From the NCBI GenBank assembly GCA_963796275.1, contig CAWCKY010000007.1, forward strand, positions 928,001 through 992,000: a DNA stretch of 64,000 nt, in the 5' to 3' direction. A model generated the notes under the pieces. The model saw only the letters and a program-made list of their open reading frames with translations, did not search any database and was not told where the DNA came from. Every line of letters starts with the position of its first letter. Positions within the stretch are counted from its first letter, which is position 1. This DNA comes from an uncultured Acidobacteriota bacterium. Lineage in GTDB: Bacteria; Acidobacteriota; Blastocatellia; RBC074. Positions 9,390 to 43,606 of the stretch are shown here, one piece after another. The translations under genes and the position numbers were made by a program.

Positions 9390-9419
9390 GGTTCCTCCTT
9401 TTATTATTGTGTTTCGGGC

Positions 9420-23027: not shown

Positions 23028-23936
23028 TTACCGACTTCCCAGGTGGCTATTGATGCCCAGGACCGCATTCTCGATCTCGATCCCGAGGCGGGGGCCGCGG
23101 TCGACATCGCCCGTCAACCATTTGAACCGATAGACCCAGTGATAGGGGGCTACCAGGCGCATCACCTGATCGATTCGCCGCTGGCCCTCGCCCGTCTGGT
23201 GACGGCGAAACTTTTCGAGCGTCTCTGCGCGTAATGTAATCTCCATCAACGCCTCGTCGTCGATCCCGTCGCCGACGATCATATCCACTCCCAGACGACT
23301 GGCGCGCGCCCCGAGCGATGAGCGATCCGATGGATCCATGAGCGTGCGGCGCGCGCGCCACGTGATCGACGCTATTTCAAGCTCGAGCAGCATTCGCATC
23401 GACAGCCGCAGACCCGATTCGCGCCCGGTCAAATAACGCAGACATGGCAGGAGGATCGCCAACTTGTACCATCTCTCTTTCGGCCAGTCTTCCGGCTCGA
23501 TGCCGAATAACTTTATCCAGCGCGCGCATCCTACTGGATTCGACGGCCGCACGTCGAAGAAGAGGCCGCCCAGACGCATATAGACAGCAGCCTTCTCGAC
23601 CGCATCGTCAAAGATCGATACCATCTCACGCGTTCCGATCTCGCCGTCGTTGGACGATTCCTGCATTCCGACCGGCAGGTGATAGAACATACTGTCGCCT
23701 TCGACGGTCAGTTCTACTACCATCTCCTGTGTGAGCGGTGTACCTGGAACCGGTTGCTGATCAATGACGCGCGACTGCGCCCATCCACGCCCCGCCTTCC
23801 TGATCGTAATGCGATCGGTCCCGATGCCCACGCGCAACAATGCCAGGAGCGCCGAGTCGACGGTGTGATGAAATCCGTGACGTGGTCGGATCAAGTCCGG
23901 CATAGACTCATCTATTTCAAACTCTTCGGGTGGCAT
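23028..23936 (-). CDS. tssG: TssG-like baseplate protein
   Basis: SMFYHLPVGM, WIKLFGI, G.ESGLRLSMRMLL, SSLGARASRLGVDMIVGD, AVLGINSHLG; adjacent to tssK. Confidence 0.7.
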   Translation of the reverse strand: MPPEEFEIDESMPDLIRPRHGFHHTVDSALLALLRVGIGTDRITIRKAGRGWAQSRVIDQQPVPGTPLTQEMVVELTVEGDSMFYHLPVGMQESSNDGEIGTREMVSIFDDAVEKAAVYMRLGGLFFDVRPSNPVGCARWIKLFGIEPEDWPKERWYKLAILLPCLRYLTGRESGLRLSMRMLLELEIASITWRARRTLMDPSDRSSLGARASRLGVDMIVGDGIDDEALMEITLRAETLEKFRRHQTGEGQRRIDQVMRLVAPYHWVYRFKWLTGDVDRGPRLGIEIENAVLGINSHLGSR

Positions 23937-24019
23937 CAAGATATCCCAACAACCACGTTTTCCTGGATCGAAACCGAAAATCTACAACTCACTGAATCAT
24001 GTTCACCTGTTTCTATAAG

Positions 24020-24481
24020 CTATCCGCATAAAACAGCCACTGCATAACCTCTCTTGGCTGCCTCTCTGATCGCTGACTCAAAGGCGTAATAAACTGTTTC
24101 TACATACTTCTCTCTTTTTTTCAAAAATCGCTCGACCTCATTCTCTGAGATCGCTTCGTAGCTATCATTCAGATCTTTAACAACCGCCGGCTTGAAATAT
24201 CCAAAATCCGGATAATCGTCATTATCGGGATCCAGTAGATTATGGGGAGAATTCGCAAAAGAAAATGTTGGCATCAAATCCGTCCCCCCCGTCACTAGTT
24301 GATCGATCGATTCCAAAGCCTCCGCAAGCGGTAAAAAATCCAACGAGATCATTTCCCATTGACTTCCCACCTCTTTTACCTTGGCCAAGAGTTTCTCGTA
24401 CTTCTCCACTTCAGAAAGCCCCGGAAGAGCCATCGGTAACTTACCCTCGTCGACTACATAAAGGAGGTATGTGTCATTCAT
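24020..24481 (-). CDS. Hypothetical acidic protein, possible second immunity protein
   Basis: Overlaps the 3' end of the Imm49-like gene; AT-richer sequence; DFGYFKPAVVK..AAKRGYAVAV. Confidence 0.5.
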   Translation of the reverse strand: MNDTYLLYVVDEGKLPMALPGLSEVEKYEKLLAKVKEVGSQWEMISLDFLPLAEALESIDQLVTGGTDLMPTFSFANSPHNLLDPDNDDYPDFGYFKPAVVKDLNDSYEAISENEVERFLKKREKYVETVYYAFESAIREAAKRGYAVAVLCG

Positions 24482-25256
24482 CAATCGACCCCAATAAATG
24501 CAAAGGGAGGTAATCAGATTTCACGGTTACATCCATCTGCTTTTCACGCCCCAGCTGGGCCAGCATCAATCCCGGCAAACAGATCAACCCTTCGTACATC
24601 AAGCGATACTCTCCGCGTAATGCTTCCCACTTATGAGCTTCAACCAAATCCGTTATTGCCCTATGAAAAGCCGGCTGGTCGCTATCCATGATCGCCTTGA
24701 CCCCTCTGATCTTGGGCAGCAGGAATTTCATCTCTTCTTTCGATGCTCGATCCGATGAACAGTACACTTCCAGTCTCTGTATCTCGTCCTCAGCCCAAGC
24801 GCCCTCAGCTACGTATCGTTTCTCAACCTCTAAAAAATCAGCCCTTATTAGATACTCACCATGCTCGGGGAAGTTATATTGCCACCGTTGTATCCCGGCC
24901 AGCTCTCTTCTCAGCTCTCTTTTCCCGAAACAGACAGCCAGGTCTATGGTCTTTTCAAAATCACCGACAAACCGAGTTTCCATCTCTCTTGGCTCGGCTC
25001 GTTTCGAGAGGAACATGACATAAAAATCTGCCGCGCTTCTCATGTGGGAAACGATCTCTTCTTTCGGCGCCTGCTGCTGGTAAAGCAGCATACCAGTTTC
25101 AAAATTTAATTCCGCCAGCTTTTCGAGATGTTTCAGGCTCTCGCTCGCATCACCAGAGGCTTCCAGCTTGGCTACCCGGCGAGGAATAATTTCGAGATTA
25201 TCTTTAATCTCCTCTTGGGCATTTTCGTCCGATATTTTGTTAAGTTTTAACCCCAT
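24474..25256 (-). CDS. Immunity protein, Imm49-like
   Basis: Directly downstream of the RHS toxin; all-alpha; C-terminal GLICLPGLMLAQLG...VKSDYLPLHLL pattern. Confidence 0.7.
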   Translation of the reverse strand: MGLKLNKISDENAQEEIKDNLEIIPRRVAKLEASGDASESLKHLEKLAELNFETGMLLYQQQAPKEEIVSHMRSAADFYVMFLSKRAEPREMETRFVGDFEKTIDLAVCFGKRELRRELAGIQRWQYNFPEHGEYLIRADFLEVEKRYVAEGAWAEDEIQRLEVYCSSDRASKEEMKFLLPKIRGVKAIMDSDQPAFHRAITDLVEAHKWEALRGEYRLMYEGLICLPGLMLAQLGREKQMDVTVKSDYLPLHLLGSIDE

Positions 25257-25292: not shown

Positions 25293-28200
25293 TCAGTTGT
25301 AGATGCCTCCGTCCGGAACTGGCAACTCGCGCGTCGAGCCATCCGGTTGAGATTGAACAACCATGCCCCTAACCTTCGGTGGCGGGCCATTTTTCATGGC
25401 TTTCTGGATATCTTTCGCCACTGGATTTCCAGATTTAGCCCACTCATCCGCGGAATTCTTCACCCATTTTTGACTCATTTGCGGCCCTTTCTTCGCCTTT
25501 GTGCTGAGTTCAGCGCCTGGTCCCTTTGCTTCGACAACCATATATTCAGTGACTTCGCCCGCTGCGTTTCGTTTAACGTAGACCTGATCATAGCCGGTCC
25601 CCGGAGCAAATCCACTCACCATCTCATACCCCGGATGGTTCTGCCTCATGTGTCTCGCCGTCCCGGTTTCACCTATGGCCTCTGTAACTTTCGCTTTGTA
25701 ACCGCCCTGAGATTGTTTACTTGCCCCTCGCTGCCTCGCCCTATCCGTTTTCCTCTTGTATTTTCTCTGGTGAGCTCCGACATCCTGCATATGCTGTGCG
25801 AAGACGGGTCTGGGATTCCTGGCGATTCTTCTTTGACGATTTAATTTCTTCCATTGCGCTCTGGTCATACTCCGAGGGACCGACACGTCTGTCCTCGATG
25901 GTCGACCGTCACCGTCACCACGACTCCTGCTTCGAGCCGGACCGCCCGGATGAAGCCCTAGAATGTCGACTCCAGTCAGCGGATTGGCCAGATAGGCATA
26001 GAGATTATAGCCGCCCGCTATTCCCAAGGGATCGCACTGCAAATAGCGCCCGAGTTCCGGGTCATAATACCGGAATCGATTATAGTGCAGCCCAACCTCG
26101 GCATCATAATAATGCCCTGGAAATCGGAGGTTGATATCATCCGAATTGCCAGATTCAACTCGGATCGCGCCATATGAAAAGACTTCACCCTCCCAGATGG
26201 TTCTTCCAGATTTATCTTCTAATCGCTCTGGCACACCTAGCTGATTGGTGAAAAGATATTTTATTACTCCGCTTTCCGGTTCTGCATCGAGGCTTGCATA
26301 CTCGACAAACAGAAAAGGTACCAACGCTTCCACATCCGCATACACATAGATGCGAACGTATCCATCATCTCTGATCTCACCCGATAATCGATCATGATCC
26401 CAGTAATACTCGGTCTTCTGTCCCTTCCAGCGTTTCCAGATTCTCCGACCGAGCACGTCATATTCGGCTCTCCACTCGCGGCCATTCATTGAGATCCCGA
26501 TGATTTGATCGAAAGAGTCGTATTCATAGCGCATTGTCCTCTTTTCACTCTCACGCAGCGTGACATTGTCGCGTTTATCATATTGGAACTTCTCGCCGTT
26601 GGCTTGCTTGAGCTTATTTCCGGATCCGACCCGTACGCCATCCAGTCCTGGCTGCAAGACCAGATTCCCTGCTTCATCGTTAGCATATAGTTCGGTCCTC
26701 CCGTCCCCGCGCTCTGCGATCTTCAACCTGTGCGCCGCATCGTAATGATATTTCACCGTCCCGCGCCTGCTGTCTTCGACCTGCAATAGATCGCCAGCCC
26801 CACTGTAGCGGTAGTTTCTGACATGTAGCTTCCCCTCAGCCATAGCCGCTACTTTACGCAGACATCGTCCTCCGGAATCATACTGACTCAGTTCCCTGGT
26901 TCCGTTGCCCAGTTCCTTAAGGATCAACCCATTATTACTGAAGTGAAATGTGTGTGCGCCACCTGTCGGATCGTTTATGACGAGGTTGCCGTTATACCCT
27001 CTTCTGTACGCGATGACAAACTTTCCAAATATCGTGGTGGAGAACAAACTATCCCCAATGAATTCGTGTTCAACCCCTAATCCATTGCGGATGTCCTTGA
27101 TCAGCCGTCCCTCCTCGTCGTAATCGAATGACATCCGGGCACGACGTGTCTGTGCTCTGATAATCTGGCCGCGTTTGTTGTACTCAAATTGATAAACTTC
27201 ACCATCAGCAAACCGCTGAATACGATCGAGCCGCCCAAATCCTGGTTCACGATCTAGCAGTCTTCGCCCCCTGCCATCCAGTTTTTCGATCAGATTGTCA
27301 GCTTCGTCATAGCGGTAAATGTCATAGGCGACTCCATCGCGCCGCACCTCGACCAGCCTGTCCTTCTTGTCGTAGACGAAGTCGTGAACGACTCCACCCG
27401 CATCGATAAACTGGGTTATCTCTTCAGTTGGTGAATATTTAAATGTGCAAGTGCTGCCGACAGGATCGGTTTCGCCATGGAGAAGATTCCAAGACGTGTA
27501 CGCTCTGCGGCGTATTCCGCCATCGCCATCGACGTACAAAACCTCATTCCCTTCTTCATCGTACTCCCAATGCTCAACCGAGCCGTCTTCATTTCGCCGC
27601 TCAATCAACCGCCCCAGCAGATCATAATTCTCTTGTGGAATCGATCGCTGGTACCTATTTGATCCGGCATTCCATGATTGCGCGAGCTCAGAAGCGACTT
27701 CCGGAAAACCTTCCAGTAGAGGATCATTCGTAGAAACAAGTTTGATAAACTCCCGGTCCAGCAGATCGCCGAACTCCCATTCGAGCGGTGTTTCGGGTAC
27801 CCTGTGTTCCAGTGGATCTGCTGGATGCGGCTCCAAATCCAGCGGCGGCGCCCAATATCCCCACGGGTCTCGCCTGCCCGTGTGCGCTCCCTGCTCATCA
27901 TATAGAAGATCAGTCGGATTGCCCGCCGGATCGAGCTCACGGCTGACTAATCCAGTATCCGGGTCAATGAGACGGTGGTGCGTTCCGCCATAAGGATCGG
28001 TGATCTTGGCTATCGTTCCCAGTTCGTTGTACTCGTATTCCCAACTGCCTCCGTCGGAATACTTCACCACCGTCGCATTGTCTTCCGGATAATATTTCAG
28101 CCACCCTTCGTACATTCCGTCTTCCCCGCTCGTATAGACGCAACGCCCCTGTTCATCGTACTGATACCGATAACTGTATCCGCGCCGGTCGGTCTTGCGC

Positions 28201-29801
28201 GTCATACGGCGCGCGGGGTCATATTCGTACCGCGCAACTCGATCGAGCGCGTCACGAAATTCAATCAGGCAGCCGTCGTCGTCATAACGGTATCTCGCCA
28301 CATAGACAACTTCATGCCCCGGCCGCTTCAGCAACACCTCACTCACCAATCCCGCCGAAGAATAGTTCAACTGAATCGTTCTCTCATCATCAATCCGAAT
28401 TCCGATGAGCCGTCCCTGTTCGTCATAAGCGAACGTGAAATTCCTATCTTCATCCCGTAGCCTCACCAGCCGCGCAGGCTCCGTCATCTCGCGAAATTCA
28501 AACTCTATCGCCGGTCGATTGTGCGAATTCAGCTCGAATCGCCGCGCCGCGAGGCGTTTCAACGCATAACCGTGCTGTGTGACACGCTCGCTCGGGTATT
28601 CGGTGATAAAAGACGGGAATGGGAAAGAGTTTCCTTCCGGATCCGTGTATGTGTATTGCGAAGTGGATTGGTCGTATGTCAGCTCCAGTTGATATTCATG
28701 TCTGAATCCCCATCCCAGCGGACCTGCCCCTGCCAGCTCCTGCAGTTGCGAGTTGTACCAGCGCCGCCAGACGAACCGAGGGGCAGGTAGCATGAAGTCG
28801 GTAAAATCGTCGACATTGGCCCCGGTGACTACGTCGATCGGTTCGAACAACTTGCCGCAACCCTGATTGAGTCCCATTCTTTGGGAGAGCTTCATAGCTC
28901 GACGCTTGAGCAGCTTCCCCAACCCTCTCAGAATCACGTCCCATCCCGGCATCGGCAGTCCGCCGATCAATACGTTCTGGCTCCCGGTGATGAATTTCCC
29001 CCAACAGTTTAACGGAGTGAATCCCGGGTCTTTTCCCATCCCGATTGACAGGGCCATCGCCGCGATGTCCGCCGCCATCTGAAGCCCCGCCATCGCCGCC
29101 TCGATTCCCGCCGCCTCCGATTTCGCCGCTGCCTCTTTAGCATCCGACTCCGATTCCGCGCTGTCCTCCATCTCCTGGTAGCCCACATGATCGGCCAGCG
29201 CCGCCGCCCCGCCCAGCGCTCCCATCGCCACCGGGAGAGCCATCATTGCCTTATCCAACTTCGACAGTCCCTTAAATCCCTTTTTCGCCGCCTTGACTCC
29301 TTTCAATCCCGGAATCCCCGGCAGGCAGTGCTTGGTGAAGTCGATCAAGAATCGGGCAGGCCTCGCTCCACCGATAAATACGTTTGAGGAACCTGTGAAG
29401 ACTTCGAACAACGGATAGTAGCCCCCACACCAAACTCCGAATCCCACGTCTCCGGTCCTCACGGCCGGCAAGCCGTTGATCAGAACGTTGACCGCCCCGG
29501 CGCAGATAACCGGCCCGATGCTCGGCAATGGGAAGCCAAAGGACGGCGGGTGCGGATGGCTGTGCGGCCATCCCAACACCAGGTCTATAAACAACCGCGC
29601 GGCGGGAAAACTCGGCAGAGCGTTGGAGAGCCAATTAGTCGCTTTCGCGACTCCCAGATTGGCCATATCGACAGGCTTCGTGGCGACCGACATGACTTCG
29701 CCGACAAAATTCTGTACGTCGCGCGCCGGGTTGGGCGGCGGCGGCAGCGCCTCGTTCGATGGATTGGCTGGGAGTTGGGTAGCGCGTTTAAGTTTTTCCA
29801 T
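25293..29801 (-). CDS. PAAR-RHS polymorphic toxin with C-terminal PD-(D/E)xK-like nuclease
   Basis: PAAR, NVLINGLPAVRTGD, TGSSNVFIGG; EPIDVVTG (DUF6531-like), GPLGWGFRH; YD repeats; LRFPGHYYDAEVGLHYNRFRYYDPELGRYLQCDPLG...DILGL; toxin E..GE...GYDQVY...VVEAKG...QMSQKWV. Confidence 0.92.
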   Translation of the reverse strand: MEKLKRATQLPANPSNEALPPPPNPARDVQNFVGEVMSVATKPVDMANLGVAKATNWLSNALPSFPAARLFIDLVLGWPHSHPHPPSFGFPLPSIGPVICAGAVNVLINGLPAVRTGDVGFGVWCGGYYPLFEVFTGSSNVFIGGARPARFLIDFTKHCLPGIPGLKGVKAAKKGFKGLSKLDKAMMALPVAMGALGGAAALADHVGYQEMEDSAESESDAKEAAAKSEAAGIEAAMAGLQMAADIAAMALSIGMGKDPGFTPLNCWGKFITGSQNVLIGGLPMPGWDVILRGLGKLLKRRAMKLSQRMGLNQGCGKLFEPIDVVTGANVDDFTDFMLPAPRFVWRRWYNSQLQELAGAGPLGWGFRHEYQLELTYDQSTSQYTYTDPEGNSFPFPSFITEYPSERVTQHGYALKRLAARRFELNSHNRPAIEFEFREMTEPARLVRLRDEDRNFTFAYDEQGRLIGIRIDDERTIQLNYSSAGLVSEVLLKRPGHEVVYVARYRYDDDGCLIEFRDALDRVARYEYDPARRMTRKTDRRGYSYRYQYDEQGRCVYTSGEDGMYEGWLKYYPEDNATVVKYSDGGSWEYEYNELGTIAKITDPYGGTHHRLIDPDTGLVSRELDPAGNPTDLLYDEQGAHTGRRDPWGYWAPPLDLEPHPADPLEHRVPETPLEWEFGDLLDREFIKLVSTNDPLLEGFPEVASELAQSWNAGSNRYQRSIPQENYDLLGRLIERRNEDGSVEHWEYDEEGNEVLYVDGDGGIRRRAYTSWNLLHGETDPVGSTCTFKYSPTEEITQFIDAGGVVHDFVYDKKDRLVEVRRDGVAYDIYRYDEADNLIEKLDGRGRRLLDREPGFGRLDRIQRFADGEVYQFEYNKRGQIIRAQTRRARMSFDYDEEGRLIKDIRNGLGVEHEFIGDSLFSTTIFGKFVIAYRRGYNGNLVINDPTGGAHTFHFSNNGLILKELGNGTRELSQYDSGGRCLRKVAAMAEGKLHVRNYRYSGAGDLLQVEDSRRGTVKYHYDAAHRLKIAERGDGRTELYANDEAGNLVLQPGLDGVRVGSGNKLKQANGEKFQYDKRDNVTLRESEKRTMRYEYDSFDQIIGISMNGREWRAEYDVLGRRIWKRWKGQKTEYYWDHDRLSGEIRDDGYVRIYVYADVEALVPFLFVEYASLDAEPESGVIKYLFTNQLGVPERLEDKSGRTIWEGEVFSYGAIRVESGNSDDINLRFPGHYYDAEVGLHYNRFRYYDPELGRYLQCDPLGIAGGYNLYAYLANPLTGVDILGLHPGGPARSRSRGDGDGRPSRTDVSVPRSMTRAQWKKLNRQRRIARNPRPVFAQHMQDVGAHQRKYKRKTDRARQRGASKQSQGGYKAKVTEAIGETGTARHMRQNHPGYEMVSGFAPGTGYDQVYVKRNAAGEVTEYMVVEAKGPGAELSTKAKKGPQMSQKWVKNSADEWAKSGNPVAKDIQKAMKNGPPPKVRGMVVQSQPDGSTRELPVPDGGIYN

Positions 29802-29818: not shown

Positions 29819-31042
29819 CTAAGATTTCAATTGAGAAAGCGCAGCCTTGCAGACGGAGAGGCGCCGGGAATCCCCCAGCTCTCGATATAGATCTCGCAGG
29901 CGCTCCCAATTCGCCCGCTGCCCTTCTTCGAATTTCAACTTGCGGCTCAACTCAACCGCCTGTTCCCAGTTCTCGGCGGCTTCAGCCGATTTTCCCATCC
30001 GGTGATTAGCCGTCCCCATCTGTTCAAGAGCCTGTATCTGTTGTACCGGCAGATTCGAAGCCCTCGCGAGTTGCTCCATCGCTTCGTAATAGACAAGGGC
30101 GTCGGTAAATCTGTTCTGCATCAACAGGGCATTACCCAGATTGAACCCCTGGTATAGAACCAAAGGCTCCGATTTCAATCCGACCGAAACGTTGATGGCA
30201 CGCTCGTACCAGTTTTGAGCCTCTTTATATTTTTTCTGCGTGTAATGCAGATCGCCGATGTTATTCAACACGATGGCCTCTTGATGTCGCTGCCCGGCGC
30301 GCCCGAAATAACCGGCCAATTCCAGATTGCGAGACAGCGCCATGTCGTAGCGTTGATGTGCGACGTCAAAACCGGTCAGCATCATCTGAAGCTGCGCATG
30401 TTCTTCCACAGGAAGACGCGGATCGTTCGCTTTCTCTTCAAGCTTCTTTTCGAATGATTCGGGGTCGAGTCCCGGGCGGTATATTCTTACGTTCGGCTGA
30501 GCGCCAATCCCTCGCTCAAGATTCGGAGAAATCGCGCCGTCACGGACGATCAACTTAGTCATCCGCAATGACCCTGTCTTCAACTCGTCGTAGACATTAC
30601 TGACCAACTCAGCATATTTAGTCGTGGCGTCGATCTCCAGCGGAAAGAAGGTCCAGATCACGCGGCGTTGGTCAGTAACCAGGTTTTCGACATATCGCAT
30701 GAGCCCGACCAGCCGAGTGGTAGGCTTCTGCGATTCATCCGTCAGCTCAGATGGTGGAGCCGGAAGAGCAGACTCGCCACGCTTAGCTAGTTCCTGATTG
30801 ACGCCGGCAAGTTGGAGGCTGATGATCGGAGGGATTTCCCGGACGTATTGGCCCGGATCGGTGAACGGATGACCGAAGGTCAGGAAAAGGTCGAGCGACC
30901 CCGGGTCGTCGTCCAGAGACTCGAGTGCCTTGAATAGAAGCGCTGAATGATCCGGCTCACATGGGACGATCAAAAGGTTTTCCGTTCGGCTGTCAATGAA
31001 CCGCTGAAACTCCGATTGAATGTCCTGCATGATGCTTCTCAT
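29819..31042 (-). CDS. TPR-containing protein, candidate effector chaperone/adaptor
   Basis: C-terminal TPRs (LNNIGDLHY..KYKEAQNWYERAI; NLGNALL; QMGTANH); lies between the spike module and PAAR-RHS. Confidence 0.7.
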   Translation of the reverse strand: MRSIMQDIQSEFQRFIDSRTENLLIVPCEPDHSALLFKALESLDDDPGSLDLFLTFGHPFTDPGQYVREIPPIISLQLAGVNQELAKRGESALPAPPSELTDESQKPTTRLVGLMRYVENLVTDQRRVIWTFFPLEIDATTKYAELVSNVYDELKTGSLRMTKLIVRDGAISPNLERGIGAQPNVRIYRPGLDPESFEKKLEEKANDPRLPVEEHAQLQMMLTGFDVAHQRYDMALSRNLELAGYFGRAGQRHQEAIVLNNIGDLHYTQKKYKEAQNWYERAINVSVGLKSEPLVLYQGFNLGNALLMQNRFTDALVYYEAMEQLARASNLPVQQIQALEQMGTANHRMGKSAEAAENWEQAVELSRKLKFEEGQRANWERLRDLYRELGDSRRLSVCKAALSQLKS

Positions 31043-31079: not shown

Positions 31080-31643
31080 TCAATTGATCTTGACGATTAC
31101 GCCCTGAATAGTCACGCCCGTGCTGTCAATCTTGATCGACCCGCCCGGCCCCTGAATGACCAGCTCTACCCCCGCGTTGATAACGATCGTCTCCTTGCCG
31201 AATTCGCTGATGTGTCTAGCGTTAATGTTCCGGGCATTGGTCACGCTAACCATCTGATCACGGGTAATCGTCACATTCTGATCATCGATGACAGTCACTA
31301 TTTGATTTTTTCCGACCGTCAAAGTATCGCTCAGCGTTACCGCCGTATTACGATTTTGATCAAACTGGAGCACATCCTCAGGGTCGCCGTCGCGAACGCG
31401 GAACATGAATTTCTTTTGAATCTCCTCCAGGCGCTGTCCTTCCGATACCAGGGCCGTCTGATCACCGACCTTGATCAAAACCTGCTCCTGGCCTGGTTTC
31501 GGTCCGGCCAGAAAACTTTCGCTCGTAATTGATCCCCAGCTCGCCGCGCTGCCGTTTGTGGGAATATGGTTGTCGGAGCCAGCATTGGGCACCGCAGTGC
31601 CAGTGCTCGTTTGAGTGTCTGCGCTATATACTTCACCCGGCAT
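31080..31643 (-). CDS. Stand-alone gp5/VgrG C-terminal beta-helix spike module B
   Basis: 8-residue repeats (DQNRNTAV, TLTVGKNQ, IVTVIDDQ, NVTITRDQ); ends ELVIQGPGGSIKIDSTGVTIQGVIVKIN like VgrG tips. Confidence 0.75.
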   Translation of the reverse strand: MPGEVYSADTQTSTGTAVPNAGSDNHIPTNGSAASWGSITSESFLAGPKPGQEQVLIKVGDQTALVSEGQRLEEIQKKFMFRVRDGDPEDVLQFDQNRNTAVTLSDTLTVGKNQIVTVIDDQNVTITRDQMVSVTNARNINARHISEFGKETIVINAGVELVIQGPGGSIKIDSTGVTIQGVIVKIN

Positions 31644-31686
31644 ATGCTAATCCTCCAATATAGAACCGTTGGCAGTTTGGTAAGGA

Positions 31687-32106
31687 CTAAGTTATCGTTC
31701 GATATATAAAAAAAGCTCCCGTCAGAAACAATGCAACCGCAACTGCAATAAGCGCTAATCCTGCATAATACAATTTGCCGCTCTTGATAGGCATCCACAG
31801 CCGCGGGAATTGAATTCCATAGAAAATAGGAATTTGATCGCCGAGCTGCGTCTGATCGAACTCTTTCTGCGTAACGGACAAAACACCCTGGAAGCTATTG
31901 CCATCCTCCGGATAGGTAAATTTGAGTTCGCATCCATTTTGAGTAAGCTGTTTTTCTACAACCGTGCCATTGCCTTTGATATAGGAGACCTGATCGGAAT
32001 CGATAAACCCGACTTTGCTTTTAGCGTTAATGTACACCGAGTAAAGAAACCAGGTGAGCATCCCAGCAATTCCCCAAAAGACTATCCCTTTAAACAGGTC
32101 GCCCAT
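31687..32106 (-). CDS. Two-TM membrane protein (DUF3592-like)
   Basis: TM, GTVVEK...LKFTYP..G....GDQIPIFY..P, TM. Confidence 0.6.
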   Translation of the reverse strand: MGDLFKGIVFWGIAGMLTWFLYSVYINAKSKVGFIDSDQVSYIKGNGTVVEKQLTQNGCELKFTYPEDGNSFQGVLSVTQKEFDQTQLGDQIPIFYGIQFPRLWMPIKSGKLYYAGLALIAVAVALFLTGAFFIYRTIT

Positions 32107-32140
32107 AGATTCTAAATCGCCTCAGTTACTCAACCTAGAT

Positions 32141-32905
32141 TCACCAGCGTAATATTTCAGATTCAGATTCAATATCCTGCTCTGGTAGTTCTGTTACCAT
32201 ATTCTCAAGCGAACCTTTTAGATTCTCTCTACTAGCAATCACAATACCCTGGTCCTCTTTGCTCTCACCGATATACAGTTCAAAGGTTCCGAACCATGAC
32301 GACAAATCATCTTCGGTCGCACTTTGAAAGGATTTAACTCCAAATAACGGAATGAAGCGAGGCATGCTGCGGAAGTGGCGATCGGTAACCCTGCTACCGA
32401 ACAATTCCTTCCATTTCCGCTGGAGGTCATTGGTTTTCAATTTTGTAAGCATTATGCTCAAGGCGCCATGTCCCGACATGGCCTCAAAACACCTCTTTTT
32501 GGCGGCTTCATCCGTTATTTGAAAAACAAACTCGGGAATATCGACAACCCCTTCAACTCCAAACTGATTTATCAGCCTCGGGTCTGCGCCTTCTATCTCA
32601 GATCGACCGGGCATGTGCGGAGGCGGCTTATGAGGGATAACGGCTAAGCCTTGTTGCGGCATCCACTGGGGAGCATTGTCAACGAACTCGGCTAGCAAAC
32701 CCGTTTGCAAACAACTTTGCCTGATCATGACTTCAAGCGACAGCTGGTTATCTGCCGATAGATACTCCTCGACAAGCGAGTCGATCAGCTTCTGCACGAG
32801 AGTTAGTTCTGATCCAGCCAATGGAAATCGGCTAACCGACAATAAATGGAGATCGCCTTTTGCAATCCCTGAAAGACGCTCAATTGAGTGAGTCCGTGCG
32901 GGCAT
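32141..32905 (-). CDS. Hypothetical protein, paralog of 32921..33709
   Basis: Shared motifs VSxFP, WxPQ..AVxPxxPPPHxP, FGxxxTD, YxGESxxDxGxVIxS. Confidence 0.7.
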   Translation of the reverse strand: MPARTHSIERLSGIAKGDLHLLSVSRFPLAGSELTLVQKLIDSLVEEYLSADNQLSLEVMIRQSCLQTGLLAEFVDNAPQWMPQQGLAVIPHKPPPHMPGRSEIEGADPRLINQFGVEGVVDIPEFVFQITDEAAKKRCFEAMSGHGALSIMLTKLKTNDLQRKWKELFGSRVTDRHFRSMPRFIPLFGVKSFQSATEDDLSSWFGTFELYIGESKEDQGIVIASRENLKGSLENMVTELPEQDIESESEILRW

Positions 32906-32920
32906 TTTTACCTCTTTCGA

Positions 32921-33709
32921 TCAAACCTCGCTCTGTCTCTTGCGTTTGTCTGACAGTATGTGAGCCAATTCAGAAATTTCTCTATCCAACCATTTGTCTG
33001 AGACTATAACCACTCCTTCATCGCGCATACTCTCGCCAACATAAAAACCCGCGAAGCTTGACAGCGCTCTGAATTGGGTACTGGTTGCATTGAGCAATGT
33101 GTCAATACCTAAAACCGGTAAACAGTCCATCATTTGAAAGGATTTGTCGGTTATCTTATATCCAAATACTTCTTTCGCTTTGGCCAACAGCTTCCGCTCA
33201 TCAAGAACAGTTGCATAGAATATCGTTCCACCGCAGCCAAACAACTCTTCGTATGCTTCCCCTACCGCGTTCTTCTTGGTAATGTAACTGATCATAGGCA
33301 TTACCTCATGTACCGGGAAACCTTCTTTCCATGACAGTGCTTCCTCCCGTGATGGCACATGCGGAGGAGGCTGATCAGGGAAGACAGCCATAGCCAGTTG
33401 CGGCTGCCAGTCGAAAACGTTCAGCCCTATCTTTTCGAGAACTTCAAATTCCAACACGTTACTGATTATTCCCAGACACCCCAGCAGATCTGTTTCAATC
33501 AGGCTGGCATAGCGTTTCTGTAACTCATCCAGGAAACGTTTGATGCTTTTTCGCTCCGCATCAGGTATGGGGAAATTCGAAACAGGTATGAAATAGACGT
33601 TCCCTCTATCTGCGACCTCCGCTTTACGTACAGGATATAGCTCTATCTGCTCACCCTGAGAGTGGAAGACTGATTCGCTGCGCTCCCTCTGTTTCTTCTG
33701 ATATTTCAT
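32921..33709 (-). CDS. Hypothetical protein, paralog of 32141..32905
   Basis: Same motif set as its neighbour; directly downstream of spike module A. Confidence 0.7.
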   Translation of the reverse strand: MKYQKKQRERSESVFHSQGEQIELYPVRKAEVADRGNVYFIPVSNFPIPDAERKSIKRFLDELQKRYASLIETDLLGCLGIISNVLEFEVLEKIGLNVFDWQPQLAMAVFPDQPPPHVPSREEALSWKEGFPVHEVMPMISYITKKNAVGEAYEELFGCGGTIFYATVLDERKLLAKAKEVFGYKITDKSFQMMDCLPVLGIDTLLNATSTQFRALSSFAGFYVGESMRDEGVVIVSDKWLDREISELAHILSDKRKRQSEV

Positions 33710-33724
33710 GGACTGATTTTTGGT

Positions 33725-34414
33725 TTAGACCCCGACGTACCAGGCATGGGTGCTGACGCCGCCGATGTCAGGCTTAGCGACACCTATTTTTGGCCTCACT
33801 ACTGTTAAAGAAGCAGCTAAAAGACCGGTCGCCAGCCATAGAGCAATCGTTTCGTTTTTTATTAAGACAGCTTCCGTCTTGACTGCCGCCAAACCGGCCT
33901 TGAGACCGAGAAGTTCGGACTTGTTTCCATAAATCTGGATATTTACGCCTCCAAACTTGACTTTGAACCATCCTTCGTTGATGTACCACGATGACACTTC
34001 ATTGGACGTCTTGGGGCCGACACTGGTATCCAAATAGGGCCCTAGAATAGTCCTAACGTTACTGCCGGTAACCGTCATGACGCGTTCTCCATTAATCGTC
34101 ATGTTTTCATTGGGCGCTACGGTTGTGTTACGCCCCTGAAGAACGTTGCGATCCTCGCCCGAGATAATGGTGGTCGTCAAATGGCCGTTAACGTGAAGCT
34201 CCCTATTTCCCGTAGTCTGTGCTGTCTGATTGCCTTTGACAAGAAGCTGCTCCTGTCCTGGCTGGGGACCGGAGAGGAAACTGTCGCCGGTTATCCCACC
34301 CCAATTCGCCACGCTGCCTTTAATGTTTATGTGATTGTCTGTCCCCGCATCAGGATTCTTGGTTCTTGTTACAGTCAAAGTGTTCATATCGAACACGGAA
34401 GATATATCGGCCAT
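33725..34414 (-). CDS. Stand-alone gp5/VgrG C-terminal beta-helix spike module A
   Basis: aaggag RBS; 8-residue repeats (GNQTAQTT, GNRELHVN, GHLTTTII, GRNTTVAP, GERVMTVT); heptad-like C-terminal tail. Confidence 0.7.
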   Translation of the reverse strand: MADISSVFDMNTLTVTRTKNPDAGTDNHINIKGSVANWGGITGDSFLSGPQPGQEQLLVKGNQTAQTTGNRELHVNGHLTTTIISGEDRNVLQGRNTTVAPNENMTINGERVMTVTGSNVRTILGPYLDTSVGPKTSNEVSSWYINEGWFKVKFGGVNIQIYGNKSELLGLKAGLAAVKTEAVLIKNETIALWLATGLLAASLTVVRPKIGVAKPDIGGVSTHAWYVGV

Positions 34415-34487
34415 GCACTCTCCTTAAAAATTCGATTATTAGATTTTGCGGCTATTGTGTTCTTCTTTTCTGATTCTGCTCTCACTT

Positions 34488-36119
34488 TCATCCAGTCTCC
34501 CTCGAAAAGAACTTGCTCCGTATATGGACCCTTCCATCCGGCGCATTCAGGAAGATATCGCCGGGAGAATTGAGGCAGAGCATCTTCCGCCCTCCCGTTT
34601 CCGGACAGCTGTCTATCAACTGAATCGTCTGCCCGCCAGGAGTCGAGATGACTATCGATTCCTTGCCTCCCACATCGACCAGTTGAATGCGATTGCCGCT
34701 TTTGGTGACGATGCGCTTGATATCGTTGCGGGCCATGTCGGACGCTATCTGCGTCCCATTGCTCCCGACGGCCTGCATCCCTTCACCATCCCAGAAACCC
34801 TGACGCGGTGCGCTGTCTACGCCGTTCCACAAGCCTCCGACGATGTATGGGCGCTCGGCATCGCCGTGCTCGAATGCCACCAGCACCTCGTCGCCGATTT
34901 CGGGCATGAACATGAAGCCTCGCCCGCCTCCCGCGCTCGGCGTCGTCATTCGCGCCCAGGAGGTCATCGCGTCCTCCATCCAATCGTATTTGATCTGAAT
35001 TCTCCCCATCCCGCGCGGGTCGTTGTGATTGACGACGCGGGCGGAGACGACGCCGGACATCCGCTTCGGCTGCGGCTGCTCGGCGACTGTGTAATCCATC
35101 CAGGGCGTGGCGATGAACTCGTTCCGGTAGCCGTCGGTTTGATCGTAGTGGTGAACTACGTGGGTCAGGCCATACTCGCCCTCAGCCGCGAAGTTGGTTC
35201 CTTCGATTTTGACCTTGTCGCCTGGCTTGAGACGCACATTGCGGCTGATGCCGGTAGCGATGACCTTTGAGCCGATGGCCCGCTGGCTCTCTTTTTCGAG
35301 CAAAGTCCGATAGCTCTCGATCTTCGGCGCGCGGCCGTCGAAGACCAGACGGTCAGGCGGCAATTGTTTCGATTGCTCGATTACGGCTCCCACCATATCG
35401 GCGGCAGTATCAGGAAAGAACTGCGGATCTTTACTGACCTTGGTGAAACGCCTGCTCTCCATCGTGCGCGGATCGTAGCAAGTGCCGTCGAAGGCGGGCT
35501 GCCCCAAGCGACCCTTGATCGTAAAACTCGTCAGGCCGTGTTCGTCGTGCCAGCGCATCGTCAGCCCCGTATCCTCGAATCCTTGTCTGATCTCCACGCC
35601 TTTTTCGGTGGGACGGATGAAGCATCCCTGGTCATCGGCGATGCGGTGGATAAAATCGAAATCGCTCTCGCCCCATTGCACGTAGTTCATCCGCGTGGAT
35701 TCGCCGTTGGCGTTGTACTGCAACTCCAACCCATCTTCGCTGATGACCTGTTGAGCTACCTCCTTCAGATTCTTTTTGTAGAAGTAATCCTCCTCAGGCG
35801 TGAGTTGCAGTTTGTAAGATTGAGTAACTCCACGTAATCTCGCGATGTAATCTCCATGTAGTTCGTACGACAGTTCGGCCTCAAGCACGAGGCCGTTGAA
35901 AAGCGGTAACTCGGCTGTATACTCCTCGAAGGCGATGAACTCGATCGGCTTGCCGAGGTAGGTCGCGACAGGAGGTTGTTGCTGGTTGATCAGACGGAAC
36001 TCGATGTCGCACCAGTAGTGAGTGCCCAACTCCTGGCGAATTGCGAGGTTCGAGATCATCGCATCTTTTAAAATTTGGCCGTCGATCTTCAAATAAAAGG
36101 GCCAGTGTCCGTTTGCCAT
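34488..36119 (-). CDS. vgrG: VgrG/gp27-gp5 spike hub protein (short form)
   Basis: YVQWGESDFDFIHRIA, ARVVNHNDPRGMGRIQIKYDW, WARMTTPSAGGGRGFMFMPEIGDEVLVAFEHGDAERPYIVGGLWNG, KRIVTKSGN. Confidence 0.92.
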   Translation of the reverse strand: MANGHWPFYLKIDGQILKDAMISNLAIRQELGTHYWCDIEFRLINQQQPPVATYLGKPIEFIAFEEYTAELPLFNGLVLEAELSYELHGDYIARLRGVTQSYKLQLTPEEDYFYKKNLKEVAQQVISEDGLELQYNANGESTRMNYVQWGESDFDFIHRIADDQGCFIRPTEKGVEIRQGFEDTGLTMRWHDEHGLTSFTIKGRLGQPAFDGTCYDPRTMESRRFTKVSKDPQFFPDTAADMVGAVIEQSKQLPPDRLVFDGRAPKIESYRTLLEKESQRAIGSKVIATGISRNVRLKPGDKVKIEGTNFAAEGEYGLTHVVHHYDQTDGYRNEFIATPWMDYTVAEQPQPKRMSGVVSARVVNHNDPRGMGRIQIKYDWMEDAMTSWARMTTPSAGGGRGFMFMPEIGDEVLVAFEHGDAERPYIVGGLWNGVDSAPRQGFWDGEGMQAVGSNGTQIASDMARNDIKRIVTKSGNRIQLVDVGGKESIVISTPGGQTIQLIDSCPETGGRKMLCLNSPGDIFLNAPDGRVHIRSKFFSRETG

Positions 36120-36173: not shown

Positions 36174-36488
36174 TTAGGGAAACGGCAAATGTAAAACTTG
36201 AATGAAATCGCGGTAGTGATTCCCCGTCACATATACCTCGCTGCCATCCCCCAGTACCACACGTAGCGTGCCCGATTCTGCGGAAGTTCCCAGATAGAAT
36301 TCCTTGTAGTAACCATGGGATCGATTCGGCAGATCATTATATTTGTTGACAAAGATGCTGTTTCCGCGCCACCCGAAGGGTAACCGGCCCAACCGGAAGT
36401 CTTTCACCAGGTGATACAGATTACGCAGACGCGGATCGCCGAGCGGGTTGCGATTGTCCGTCTTAACTGTCCATTTGATCGTTTTCAT
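36174..36488 (-). CDS. Guanyl-specific ribonuclease (barnase/RNase Sa family)
   Basis: FVNKYNDLP..GYYKEF...GTLRVVLG...YVTGNHYRDF; catalytic E, one R and H retained. Confidence 0.8.
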   Translation of the reverse strand: MKTIKWTVKTDNRNPLGDPRLRNLYHLVKDFRLGRLPFGWRGNSIFVNKYNDLPNRSHGYYKEFYLGTSAESGTLRVVLGDGSEVYVTGNHYRDFIQVLHLPFP

Positions 36489-36512
36489 ACGTTCCAGTAA
36501 TAGAGTGAATTC

Positions 36513-36578
36513 GCCACGTAGGCACAGAGGCACGGAGGGGAACGCGTTTCACTCTCCGTGTCTCTGTGTCTCTATGGC
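36513..36578. repeat. REP-like imperfect palindrome
   Basis: gccacgtaggcacagaggcacggag...ctccgtgtctctgtgtctctatggc. Confidence 0.65.
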
Positions 36579-37667: not shown

Positions 37668-39023
37668 TCAGTTTCCCGCACTATCCGGCACATCGCCCAG
37701 AGGCTTGAATTCAGGGACGTCGATCTTGACGCGGAAGACCTCAGCCGGTCCCGTCGGCATCACTTCGAGATAGATGTCGCACACGCCCTGCATCCGTTTG
37801 TTGTAGTCTTTATCGACAAACAGGTTGTATTCGAGGATCGTGCCCTGCGACTTCTGATCTTCCAGCAACCGCTGGATCGGCTTCTCGACTTCTTCATCCA
37901 TAAAATCCCGGGTCAGCACCTGTCCGGCAATTTCACGCAGCCGAGCTGAGACGGAGCGTTCGAGATATGAGAGCACTCGGTAGGCTGTGAAGAATTTATA
38001 GACGCCATATTTGTCATCGGCCAGACTGCGGCAGCCGTAAAAACAGAGATGGTTATCGGCGTCGCGGATGATAGGAATCACCTGCATCTCTTGCGAAAGC
38101 AATTCCATCTGGCTGATCAAACATTCGATGCGCGCCTTTTCGACCCCTTTGATTCGGCCGAACTTGGTGCCGATCGGGCCCTGTACCACGCTGTCGCGCG
38201 CGCGGTCGGTGCGCGCCACCGCTCCGGCGAAGATCAGTGAAGCCGGCGCATAAAGATCATCGCCATACTCCTTTTCGAACCAATGAGCATCGCGAAGTTT
38301 GAGGGTGCCGACCATAACGACGTCGGAGGCCGCCTGATCGTCCGGGCGTTTGAGGAATTCGTATCGTCCGCCGGGTCGAAATTGGTCTACCACCTTCTTG
38401 TACGACCCTTCATCACCCAGATCGGTGATGAGCAGCATGCCCCACTTCCACGCCTCTTCTTCGAGCGCCTCGCGGATCATCATCGGGATTTCACCCGGCA
38501 CGACCACGTTGCAGATGTCGTCGCGAAAGTTGAAATTGTCGTTGCGGTTGGTGACGAACCGACGGATAGCTTCAAGGGTTGAGCTCTCGCGGTTGCGCAT
38601 CGACTGCGGGTCCGCATTGTAGATGAAGAATTCGACCGGTTTGCGCTGCTTACCATCGGGGACGATCGAATTTTCGAAGAAAAGCCAGATCTGCCGATAG
38701 GCCGACTCGAGCGGGCGAATCTCATCGAAGAGTTTCTCCATCACCTCATCGCGTACTTTTTCAGCGTGGTCGATCTGCCCCTGGAATTTTTGGAGAGTTT
38801 CATCGTAACTGTCCGCCTCAGAGAGCAACGATTCGAAGTCGGTCAGGCGCAATAAAAATTCGCTCGCCGTCTCTGGCGTGAAGATAGTCTCCACTGAGGT
38901 CTTCTGTTCACCCAGCCGCGGATGAATGGCGACGAAGATCTCGTCCAGCACTTTGCGCACCGGCGCTTCGGCATCGGCGAAGATATCAGCAATGGTTGCA
39001 GTCTTGACTTCCTGTTGGGCCAT
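37668..39023 (-). CDS. tssC: Contractile sheath large subunit, Bacteroidota-type (DUF5458-like)
   Basis: RPLESAYRQIWLFFEN, NVVVPG, MLLITD, LYAPAS..FAG, G.KFG, YRV.SYL, sheath-like C-terminus. Confidence 0.8.
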   Translation of the reverse strand: MAQQEVKTATIADIFADAEAPVRKVLDEIFVAIHPRLGEQKTSVETIFTPETASEFLLRLTDFESLLSEADSYDETLQKFQGQIDHAEKVRDEVMEKLFDEIRPLESAYRQIWLFFENSIVPDGKQRKPVEFFIYNADPQSMRNRESSTLEAIRRFVTNRNDNFNFRDDICNVVVPGEIPMMIREALEEEAWKWGMLLITDLGDEGSYKKVVDQFRPGGRYEFLKRPDDQAASDVVMVGTLKLRDAHWFEKEYGDDLYAPASLIFAGAVARTDRARDSVVQGPIGTKFGRIKGVEKARIECLISQMELLSQEMQVIPIIRDADNHLCFYGCRSLADDKYGVYKFFTAYRVLSYLERSVSARLREIAGQVLTRDFMDEEVEKPIQRLLEDQKSQGTILEYNLFVDKDYNKRMQGVCDIYLEVMPTGPAEVFRVKIDVPEFKPLGDVPDSAGN

Positions 39024-39505
39024 CATTCACCACCTTTCCCGGCATGTGCGACCTTCTCCAGCTCAGCGTGCAGGCGGGCCAGGGCGGCGAGTATCTGCTT
39101 GCGTTGAGCCGGATTTGACCAGGCGCGTTTGACAGAGGGCAGCGCCCAACGATCCTTCATCCGATAGAGCAGATCGATGGCGCTCTTCAAATCAGCGATA
39201 TCGTTGCGTTGGCCCGGATTCCTTTTCTGGATATTTTCCGGGCTGAAATCTTTGAGGCTGCGGAACTCGAGATCTGCCACGAACTCTGTCGCCTCCTCAC
39301 CTGCCTGGGTTTCAAAATGGATTGAAGGTTTGAATTTCTCTAAGGCGTCATTGACGCTGTCCACGCGCACGGCCTCTTCATCTTCACTCTCGAGTTCCCT
39401 GCCCATGCGCTCTAACGTCACAGGAAGCACAGCCAAGGTCGTATCGGTAGGAACGGGACGTACCGCAGGGGTTATACCTTTACGGATGACTTCGATCTTA
39501 GGCAT
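39023..39505 (-). CDS. tssB: Contractile sheath small subunit
   Basis: DLEFRSLKDFSPENI TssB motif; coupled to tssC. Confidence 0.8.
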   Translation of the reverse strand: MPKIEVIRKGITPAVRPVPTDTTLAVLPVTLERMGRELESEDEEAVRVDSVNDALEKFKPSIHFETQAGEEATEFVADLEFRSLKDFSPENIQKRNPGQRNDIADLKSAIDLLYRMKDRWALPSVKRAWSNPAQRKQILAALARLHAELEKVAHAGKGGE

Positions 39506-42571: not shown

Positions 42572-43606
42572 CTACTTGATGAAAACCGATTTTATCGTTT
42601 TGCGATTACCTGAAAGTAGCAGAATCTCGAGTTCCTCAAAATCTTTCCCTCCCTCTTTCGGGGCACTTAGCGTCAGCGTGAAGTCCTGCGTTTCAATCGC
42701 CCTGAATCTATCAGCCGGCACTCTGACGGCGACAATCTGGTTGGATCTGGTCTGCCTGACTCTGCTGGCCTCGCCTTTCCAAATCTCTCTGTTTCCATCA
42801 ACCGTCGTGACGACCGCTAGATAAGGCGGCTGTTTCTCTTGCCGTTCCATGGTCACTCGCAGCTCTACGAACGTTGTGTCGACGAAGATAACCGCTTTGT
42901 CCAGCCCTTTGATGTCTCTGACTCCCGGCGCCAGTGCCAGAAAAACGACTCGATTTTTCGATGCTTGAGACCCGTCTGAATCATTTACCAATCGGTCCAG
43001 CCGGCCAGTAACATTATCAAGATCATCACGCAGGGCGCTGCCCTGTTTGCGTTCCTCAGCCAGTAGCTGTCGTTCGCGGGCGAGTTGACGCTCTGCCTCC
43101 ATAGCTCTTTGCTCGATTGCGGCACGCTCTTCACCTGCCGCGGCGAGTCGCCCGCGCAGCCGGAGCAGTTCGATGCCCAAACTCAGAGCCAGAATTAACA
43201 GAAATGCCGCTGTCAAGCTGGAACCCAGAACCAGGTAGCGTTTCTCAAACAACCCTAGCCACGAAGACGAGTACAGCGAAGAAAACCAACTCCCACTGCG
43301 ACTATCCGAAGCAGAATGAATTGTCGATTGTGATGTGCAGGCATGGACTAGCTGCCTGGCCATCTCGATTCTAGCGCGGCGCTTCTCGGAAGCGAGATAG
43401 TGCTGCTCGAAAAGTTGACGCTCGGGGTCTGAAAGTTCACCTTTCGCATAATCCTCAATCAGTTCCTCTTCCAGAGCCAGTACCTGTTCAAACATATCCC
43501 CGTCCTCCAGATAAGCCTCTTCGAAGCGCGCCTCATCCTCTTCAGACAGCTGATTGAGGAGATACCGGATTATCGTCTGATCACTTATTGCGGTTGGTTG
43601 CTTCAC
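42572..43606 (-). CDS. Putative anti-sigma factor (N-terminal domain, TM, coiled coil, beta domain)
   Basis: IIRYLLNQLSEEDEARFEEAYL...EEELIEDY..GELS..ERQLFEQHYL; downstream of the ECF sigma. Confidence 0.7.
   Translation of the reverse strand: MKQPTAISDQTIIRYLLNQLSEEDEARFEEAYLEDGDMFEQVLALEEELIEDYAKGELSDPERQLFEQHYLASEKRRARIEMARQLVHACTSQSTIHSASDSRSGSWFSSLYSSSWLGLFEKRYLVLGSSLTAAFLLILALSLGIELLRLRGRLAAAGEERAAIEQRAMEAERQLARERQLLAEERKQGSALRDDLDNVTGRLDRLVNDSDGSQASKNRVVFLALAPGVRDIKGLDKAVIFVDTTFVELRVTMERQEKQPPYLAVVTTVDGNREIWKGEASRVRQTRSNQIVAVRVPADRFRAIETQDFTLTLSAPKEGGKDFEELEILLLSGNRKTIKSVFIK

Follow-up and report, generated by a model that had tools for sequence, protein, structure and literature searches.

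Cargo selection by type VI secretion systems (T6SSs) is currently explained by several sets of full-length VgrG, PAAR and adaptor proteins. In the textbook mode, cargo-specific full-length VgrGs carry C-termini matched to their cargo, and class I prePAAR effectors depend on an Eag chaperone and a cognate VgrG. In contractile injection systems (CIS) and extracellular CIS (eCIS), spikes of the Afp8/Pvc8 kind are capped directly by a PAAR-like protein. Here, we analyzed a 64,000-nucleotide (nt) stretch of DNA from an uncultured Acidobacteriota bacterium (GenBank assembly GCA_963796275.1, contig CAWCKY010000007.1, positions 928,001 to 992,000), hereafter the window, in which the spike of a T6SS is encoded in separate pieces: a short VgrG, referred to as the hub, and two small stand-alone beta-helix proteins, module A and module B. 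With this arrangement, a lineage common in soil metagenomes separates an invariant hub from a small exchangeable needle.

Split spikes as such are already known, and the closest precedents are Francisella VgrG/PdpA and T4 gp27/gp5. The Francisella T6SS-ii splits its spike into a needle-only VgrG of 164 amino acids (aa) and PdpA (PMC5924787). A spike split into gp27 and gp5 is described also for the type iv T6SS and for phage T4 (PMC8632748). The window resembles the Francisella system in its two-product spike, with a small beta-helix-only protein that lacks the gp27 and oligonucleotide/oligosaccharide-binding (OB) domains and a hub supplied by a separate protein (PMC5924787; PMC8632748). The modules are needle-only in this sense, containing neither gp27 nor OB, and a hub gene adjoins module A just as it adjoins a module in most of the metagenomic loci counted below. 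Unlike the Francisella system, the hub here keeps the OB fold and a C-terminal end of its own of ~110 aa, and the needles carry a conserved N-terminal motif, fall into many C-terminal classes and occur as several paralogues per genome, each before its own cargo. A PdpA-type hub without OB, accompanied by a gene set of the Francisella pathogenicity island type, was not found at this locus, which has the OB fold, ClpV and TssK/TssG-like genes; the two were set apart by description and not by sequence.

Like the canonical "a la carte" selection by VgrG, the locus places a spike variant just upstream of adaptor, effector and immunity genes, and module B ends in a VgrG-type tip. Here, however, what varies is a gene that lacks hub domains and spans ~160-400 aa (~900 aa in one case), and not a VgrG of 650-1000 aa. 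Separate hub, needle and tip chains are also present in phages (T4 gp27/gp5/gp5.4), and by sequence the hub is Afp8/Pvc8-like and the modules gp5C-like. In T4, the OB fold and the needle share the gp5 chain, with the split between gp27 and gp5, whereas here the split follows the OB fold and a short C-terminal region; in contrast to the eCIS, the locus is a T6SS with TssB, TssC, TssG, TssK and ClpV. The modularity of phage tailspikes and tail fibres offers an analogy, without any claim of homology, in its conserved N-terminal anchor (~60 residues here) and exchangeable distal part. Word searches of open-access full texts returned no account of a spike divided behind the OB fold, of needles that form a stand-alone family and have a conserved head motif of their own, of several needles per hub or of this Acidobacteriota T6SS type, and a description elsewhere is possible.

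The hub, the modules and the genes that accompany them were located as follows (window coordinates):

34488..36119 (-), short VgrG hub, 543 aa, with gp27-like domain, gp5 OB fold and a conserved C-terminal region of ~110 aa ending ...GRVHIRSKFFSRETG
33725..34414 (-), module A, 229 aa, with the N-terminal family motif, a beta-helix segment of 8-residue repeats and a C-terminal domain with one hydrophobic segment
32921..33709 (-), P0004, 262 aa, of a family travelling with tail-type modules and without a library family
32141..32905 (-), P0005, 254 aa, a P0004 paralogue with 30% identity in 215 aa (E 7e-28)
31687..32106 (-), P0006, 139 aa, with hydrophobic segments at ~8-26 and 109-139
31080..31643 (-), module B, 187 aa, with the N-terminal family motif, a beta-helix and a canonical VgrG-type tip ...GPGGSIKIDSTGVTIQGVIVKIN
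29819..31042 (-), TPR protein, 407 aa, with tetratricopeptide repeat (TPR) matches in Pfam; candidate adaptor or chaperone of the Rhs effector
25293..29801 (-), PAAR-DUF6531-RHS effector, 1502 aa, with a C-terminal toxin region (Pfam and NCBIfam)
24474..25256 (-), Imm49-family immunity candidate, 260 aa (PF15575, 39.9 bits)

The hub showed the gp27-like domain, the OB fold and the location in a T6SS cluster that characterize VgrG/TssI. In the Pfam scan, Phage_GPD (PF05954) matched residues 48-327 with 43.7 bits against a cut-off of 30.1, and the OB domain (PF04717) matched residues 359-431 with 92.8 bits against 23.8. The long gp5C-type beta-helix and a full-length match to a curated VgrG model were absent: the Pfam scan gave no Gp5_C match, and the NCBIfam VgrG models stayed below their cut-offs (TIGR03361, 100.4 against 186.35; TIGR01646, 117.9 against 121.8; NF033848, 165.5 against 275). 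Only ~110 residues lie C-terminal to the OB fold before the chain stops at residue 543. The original prediction, made from the letters of the window alone, had a 543-aa VgrG ending soon after the OB fold in a short beta-helix; the early end stood, whereas the helix found no support, residues 465-543 lacking the lag-8 periodicity of such a fold.

The hub family comprised 633 relatives at E <= 1e-20. Among the best 120 of these, 113 measured 520-594 aa, seven were shorter fragments and none exceeded 594 aa, which points to a hub that is short by design and fixed in length across its relatives. The last ~80 residues are among the best-conserved parts of the protein, ending ...GRVH.....FSREIG; conservation stays strong there even in relatives of only ~50% overall identity, and GRVH does not vary. 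The closest homologues are named as proteins of Blastocatellia, Chloracidobacterium and Bryobacteraceae metagenome-assembled genomes (MAGs), three Acidobacteriota groups, and one nearby relative comes from a Desulfobacteraceae MAG. By these names, the DNA probably belongs to the Acidobacteriota, class Blastocatellia. Among solved structures, the best sequence matches were CIS/eCIS spikes of 529-643 aa (9gtr, 7aef, 7b5h, Afp8 6rbk and Pvc8 6j0m) and a Bacteroides VgrG. By its sequence, the C-terminal end of the hub resembles the type seen in Afp8/Pvc8-like CIS/eCIS spikes and in Bacteroides VgrGs. Two other Acidobacteriota genomes carried hubs of the same family fused at the conserved C-terminus to other domains: a 902-aa protein with a lipase-like domain and a GHSLGG motif (L052, 1486-4194), and a 643-aa protein with an Ala-rich linker and a TTR-like domain (L050, 1402-3333).

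Modules A and B were 42% identical over 114 aa (E 6e-25), with 53-57% identity in the first ~60 residues against 26-28% in the remainder. Written as a DNA pattern, their shared motif matched twice in the window and never in 100 shuffles. No gp27, OB or PAAR domain (PF05488) was found in either module by Pfam; PF05488 is present in the Rhs proteins. Gp5_trimer_C remained sub-threshold, with 22.1 bits for A and 21.0 for B against a cut-off of 30.9. Lag-8 autocorrelation of hydropathy reached 0.43 in A and 0.37 in B (z ~4.1 against 2000 shuffles), and the profile of the family matched known helices of the PDB with E values between 1.5e-6 and 2e-4, namely 7q5p, residues 490-625 of VgrG1 (4mtk) and residues 482-562 of T4 gp5. 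PADLOC and PHROGs together gave a single weak match, "baseplate hub subunit and tail lysozyme", for module A, whereas module B met phage Gp5_C-type clusters of the protein atlas at 0.93-0.94, which serve as leads only. Taken as sequences, the modules look like gp5-type beta-helices. In the monomer model of module A (mean predicted local distance difference test, pLDDT, of 59.6), only residues ~61-130 were confident, and they were extended, which is how a single chain should look once removed from its trimer.

Over residues 461-629 of a canonical VgrG of 755 aa, module B aligned colinearly and as a single piece, at 30% identity (one pairwise alignment; library-wide E 1.6e-4). This part of the VgrG begins at the last OB strand and extends to the ...GVTIQG.LV.IN tip at the end of the beta-helix. 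Across 401 genomes of the phylum, the matches of the module profile to canonical VgrGs (~650-1100 aa) were limited to the part after about position 50 of the profile. Because of the colinear alignment and the helix matches of the profile, the module is best read as the detached post-OB part of a VgrG. A likeness seen by eye between the N-motif of the modules and the post-OB segment of the hub was dropped, as the profile-profile comparison gave E 0.55.

Coordinates and lengths originally given for the hub and both modules were all correct on recheck. The description of A and B as gp5-like proteins of 8-residue repeats, with a common N-terminal motif and no gp27 or OB-fold remnants, was borne out, as was that of the classic VgrG-type tip of module B. 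A clear ribosome-binding site (RBS), which had been noted for module A (AAGGAG), was found for module B as well (GGAGGA). The similarity claimed for A and B at the nucleotide level held as far as the shared protein motif implies; no long identical tract was present, and recent gene conversion between the two genes was ruled out on that ground. Of the "heptad-like tail" of module A, two helices predicted at low confidence (168-181 and 188-205) and one hydrophobic segment near 188-207 were left, and nothing beyond them.

For the conservation of the split, 80 metagenome loci were fetched with the hub profile, and an iterated hidden Markov model (HMM) was built from the N-termini of the modules. 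We counted 74 hubs whose 3' end is complete and which are followed by at least 300 nt of DNA; L056, L078, L083 and L100 were excluded due to too little DNA after the hub. As a result, 70 of the 74 hubs had an adjoining module gene, whose aligned start lay -39 to +157 nt from the hub stop. The start codon of the module overlapped the stop codon of the hub in six listed loci (L102, L103, L104, L109, L125 and L126). The loci yielded 71 modules with 59 distinct N-termini, the 71st being that of L056, where the contig ends within the module.

Module B was also submitted to a library of 1.84 billion proteins, which returned 58 matches at E <= 1e-3. Thirty-one of these were at most 272 aa long and had the motif within their first 20 residues, and two more carried it after a short N-terminal extension. 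These 31 stand-alone matches, with the motif at their own N-terminus, bear out the earlier view of the modules as a stand-alone family. Among the 14 matches of at least 458 aa, only the canonical 755-aa VgrG aligned from the N-terminus of the query (residues 3-187); a match of 3481 aa covered no more than module B residues 32-71. In addition, a degenerate DNA pattern was scanned against named genomes with seven matches, three of them by chance (L036, L037 and L042, without an open reading frame (ORF) over the pattern). All four real matches, three titled Blastocatellia and one a Desulfobacteraceae MAG, contained the hub and module unit. Together, these counts argue for a split that is real, ancestral and conserved.

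The source names of the small module-family proteins were "hypothetical protein" almost throughout the library. The same name was given for every named homologue of P0004, of which 23 were found besides the window protein (24 rows listed). With both the module and the P0004-like families annotated as hypothetical, automatic T6SS annotation misses part of the spike and of the cargo in these genomes.

Across loci, the modules were mosaic. One nearly identical hub type was paired with at least five classes of module C-terminus, all with the N-motif, ending in ...GVTIQGVLVKIN, ...GGDVFIN, ...VDINP, ...VEINP and ...VKVNC; further tail types were seen in the window, in G001 and in L038. A second hub type, present in four loci (L064, L084, L088 and L097), was always accompanied by a distinct variant of the N-motif (...AQNY.DDVKVPI...) and was paired with three different tails. 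The tail class ...GSIRF / ...GSIRW was found with either N-variant, each time the one fitting the neighbouring hub. We compared 2016 pairs drawn from 64 distinct hub-module units, in which the pairs are not independent. Identity of the hub C-terminus correlated more closely with that of the module N-terminus (rho 0.69) than with that of its remainder (rho 0.56). Of 250 pairs with close hubs, 8% kept an N-terminus of at least 50% identity with a remainder below 30%, whereas the reverse occurred in 0%. Such mosaicism has the pattern expected, on sequence grounds, of a conserved attachment end and an exchangeable working end, and it agrees with the different tips on a shared N-terminus that had been noted in A and B.

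Two unusual kinds of module were also seen. In G240 (contig C6, 103977-106499), the module lies in an open frame of 913 aa, in which the helix part of the profile was matched about eight times in tandem, an extremely long needle. The hub-adjacent modules of L108, L112 and L114 end after 82-90 aa at a common ...KDVVKT.IG, and these are either mini-modules or the result of a shared truncation.

The modules were also linked with cargo genes. B-type modules were followed by TPR and PAAR-RHS genes in the window and in L041, and by a TPR gene in L039, where the fetched stretch ends; the TPR gene had 85% identity in L041 and 43% in L039. Module B had been predicted to head a cassette of TPR, PAAR-RHS and immunity genes, and the Pfam matches of the downstream TPR, PAAR-RHS and Imm49 genes agree with this. 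In the window, G001, L038, L064 and at both loci of G133, one of which is far from any hub, tail-type modules preceded a P0004-like pair and a membrane protein. In L043 and L049, a P0004-like gene follows the tail-type module. Homologues of P0006 hold the same place in the cassettes of L038, G001, L064 and G133.

P0004 matched no family of Pfam, NCBIfam, PADLOC or PHROGs and had no usable match in the protein atlas. Its AlphaFold model was confident (pLDDT 87.4; predicted template modelling score, pTM, 0.83), and the fold search gave none at E <= 0.001 among 567 PDB matches at E <= 10. One possibility is that the P0004/P0005 family has a new fold and works as an adaptor or immunity protein. 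A conserved motif, Y.GES..D.G.VI.S, lies near the C-terminus of the family, which always occurred with tail-type modules.

The third module of the genome lies on another contig (C1, L054 7760-8272) and is followed by a DcrB/Eag chaperone gene and a prePAAR-PAAR-Rhs effector. Pfam scored this orphan locus at 106.1 bits for DcrB, 37.0 for prePAAR_I and 70.6 for PAAR, in addition to DUF6531 and RHS repeats. Eag (DcrB/DUF1795), prePAAR, PAAR and Rhs are the components of a class I prePAAR cassette, here with a module in the position of the spike gene. Orphan modules ahead of DcrB and a prePAAR effector were found in G000, the genome of the window, and in G001, and the orphan of the sister species has a different effector. 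Modules thus head cargo-like cassettes also at orphan loci (G000, G001 and G133), a point that had originally been put forward as a check, and the gene neighbourhoods indicate that modules associate with cargo genes. The Rhs effector of the G000 orphan locus (C1, L054 8907-13122) is read in three ORFs (8907-11051, 10948-11835 and 12217-13122), which reflect either frameshifts or a broken gene.

We propose that the spike is built in two parts, a reading that we regard as moderately probable, in which module trimers would dock by their N-motif on the conserved C-terminus of the hub and select the cargo. The first piece would be the short VgrG hub, with its gp27-like domain, OB fold and conserved end of ~110 aa, and the second a separately translated, trimeric beta-helix protein of the gp5C type, the module. 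The family-specific N-terminal ~60 residues of the module would dock on the invariant hub C-terminus, presumably in a 3:3 stoichiometry, and its variable C-terminus would decide which cargo is loaded. The PAAR domain of the Rhs toxin encoded downstream would sit on the tip of module B, with the TPR protein helping. Module A, with its conserved hydrophobic C-terminal domain, would belong with the two paralogous proteins and the small membrane protein that travel with it, and the third module would serve the Eag (DcrB) chaperone/prePAAR-Rhs cassette that it heads. From one hub gene and three modules, alternative spikes would be assembled on one hub.

Should the docking prove true, the spike would have a new architecture, standing between the fused VgrG of types i/iii and the splits of gp27/gp5 type known from types ii/iv and from phages, and a compact, conserved protein-protein interface would specify loading. 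A broader version, which we offer as a tentative possibility and hold to be rather doubtful, takes the N-terminal ~60 residues as a universal plug. Any module, from the cluster or an orphan locus, could then be mounted on the single hub, cargo would be chosen by competition among needle cartridges, and new cargo would be acquired by moving a gene set headed by a needle gene. The needle genes that head such sets are well under 1 kb (0.56-0.69 kb in the window).

Several observations weigh against the docking of modules on the hub or against the sharing of one hub. Certain hubs may function in the absence of a module. Four of the 74 hubs had no adjoining module: a TssF-like gene follows in L093, L094 and L096, which are near-identical contigs, and another gene in L110. 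The fused "evolved hubs" of L050 and L052 have no module gene directly downstream, and G230 and G317 have a membrane-protein gene between hub and module. Hub residues 465-543 showed no lag-8 periodicity of hydropathy (0.06, z 0.7), the N-motif of module A was modelled at low confidence (pLDDT ~55), and the profile-profile comparison of the module family with the hub found no similarity (E 0.55), so a seamless continuation of a common helix is not implied. Within the flanks that were fetched, each of the 71 metagenomic modules had a hub next to it, which makes one hub with several cartridges a rare state. In agreement with this, modules outnumbered hubs in just three of 12 genomes (G000, G001 and G133), and 1:1 was the common state. 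L064 (3673-12349) and L097 carry two hub and module pairs in the gene order of the window, and these loci, with the match between hub type and N-variant, could reflect pair specificity rather than free exchange. Furthermore, the genome of the window is 94.7% complete, and a second hub could be unassembled.

The whole-genome HMM search of G000 resulted in one hub, three N-motif modules and one canonical 698-aa VgrG. Hubs to modules numbered 1:3 in G000, 3:5 in G001 and 1:2 in G133; 2:1 in G083 and G230; 2:2 in G298 and G317; and 1:1 in G155, G240, G428, G429 and G430. The canonical VgrG sits in a second, ordinary T6SS with its own ClpV and DUF4123 adaptor, and the genome therefore runs canonical and split-spike systems side by side. 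This second system was located as follows:

G000 contig C3, L055 2187-10058, ClpV, caspase-TPR protein, canonical VgrG (GPD, OB and Gp5_trimer_C at 103 bits) and DUF4123 adaptor

The original prediction had modules replace multiple full-length VgrGs. This is not general, given the usual 1:1 ratio, the two-pair clusters and the canonical 698-aa VgrG in the second T6SS of G000. In comparison with the two-pair clusters L064 and L097, the window retains only the second hub type, ahead of module A, and these clusters look like an ancestral or alternative state of its arrangement of one hub and two modules. The second hub of L097 is read in two pieces.

The alternative that survives best, although we consider it unlikely, takes the hub for an Afp8/Pvc8-like spike complete in itself. 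The modules would then be no obligatory distal needle part but cargo, co-effectors or adaptors, hung from the tip in the manner of PAAR proteins or held in the baseplate cavity. The closeness of the hub to CIS/eCIS spikes of 529-643 aa would suit a self-sufficient hub, and the direct fusions to a lipase-like or TTR-like domain and the four hubs without a module are compatible with it; the conserved C-terminal domain of tail-type modules could itself be an effector. The adjacency in 70 of 74 loci with start/stop overlaps is, however, that expected of stoichiometric partners, and the modules show a needle periodicity unlike globular cargo. The canonical VgrG tip of B-type modules and the PAAR effectors downstream place these modules between the hub and the PAAR protein, and not beside PAAR.

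The two-part spike with modules shared by one hub also competes with strict cognate pairs, in which the two extra modules of the genome would be leftovers after hub loss, silent or non-functional. The two pairs in the same gene order in L064 and L097, the co-occurrence of hub type and N-motif variant, and 1:1 as the commonest ratio all fit such pairs. We nevertheless judge this alternative improbable, less so only than what follows: the ORFs of modules A and B and of the orphan are intact, with an RBS and full cargo cassettes for A and B; a second species of the genus, whose hub is 68% identical, keeps the cluster of one hub and two modules; the N-variant of module A fits the hub that is present and not that of the other hub type; and hubless module cassettes also occur in G133 and G001.

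That the small genes are decayed 3' vgrG fragments from island recombination, or a frameshift or assembly artefact, is scarcely credible: the colinearity of module B with canonical VgrG residues 461-629 (30% identity) and the match of canonical VgrGs of 650-1100 aa to the helix part of the module profile would suit it, but the same break point recurs in the 70 of 74 independent metagenomic loci and four named genomes, no hub relative exceeds 594 aa among the best 120 of 633, 31 stand-alone library clusters begin with the motif, and both modules have their own RBS; in-frame stops lie upstream of A, and 73 nt separate it from the hub, which is read in another frame. Decay, frameshift and assembly error can, on this evidence, be considered excluded as the cause of the split. 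The possibility raised originally, that the motif is an internal segment of full-length VgrGs left in decayed fragments, kept its first part, the derivation from an internal VgrG segment, while decay was not seen. A programmed frameshift or readthrough joining the hub to module A was rejected as well, given the different frames, the TAA TAA stops in the spacer and the conservation of the split.

The remaining T6SS genes of the window lie on both sides of the spike and cargo genes:

37668-39026 (-), TssC, sheath gene of the same divergent T6SS
39023-39505 (-), TssB, sheath gene of the same divergent T6SS
23028-23939 (-), TssG-like, match below the curated cut-off
21748-23004 (-), TssK-like, match below the curated cut-off
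18603-21200 (-), ClpV, with the TssG-like and TssK-like genes directly downstream of the cargo cassettes

The hub is therefore inside a T6SS cluster, with TssC/TssB upstream and TssG-like, TssK-like, ClpV, an FHA protein and two Ser/Thr kinases downstream. Most of the T6SS core matches at the locus scored under their curated cut-offs, as in a divergent T6SS.

Directly upstream of the hub, a 119-aa ORF (36174-36533, (-)) matched the ribonuclease family PF00545 of the barnase/T1 type (E 3.6e-6, 27.9 bits against a cut-off of 24) and could encode a small effector of the T6SS. In the sister species, this position is taken by another gene, which by eye looked like a trypsin-type protease. Large genes of signalling type flank the T6SS, within 44264-47803 (-), 48383-50623 (+) and 12241-16996 (-). 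Their products are a TPR-CHAT protein of 1179 aa, a caspase-TPR protein and two PEGA-domain Ser/Thr kinases, of which one carries an FGE-sulfatase domain in addition. Additionally, an extracytoplasmic function (ECF)-type sigma factor and a zf-HC2 anti-sigma factor form a pair at 42572-44263.

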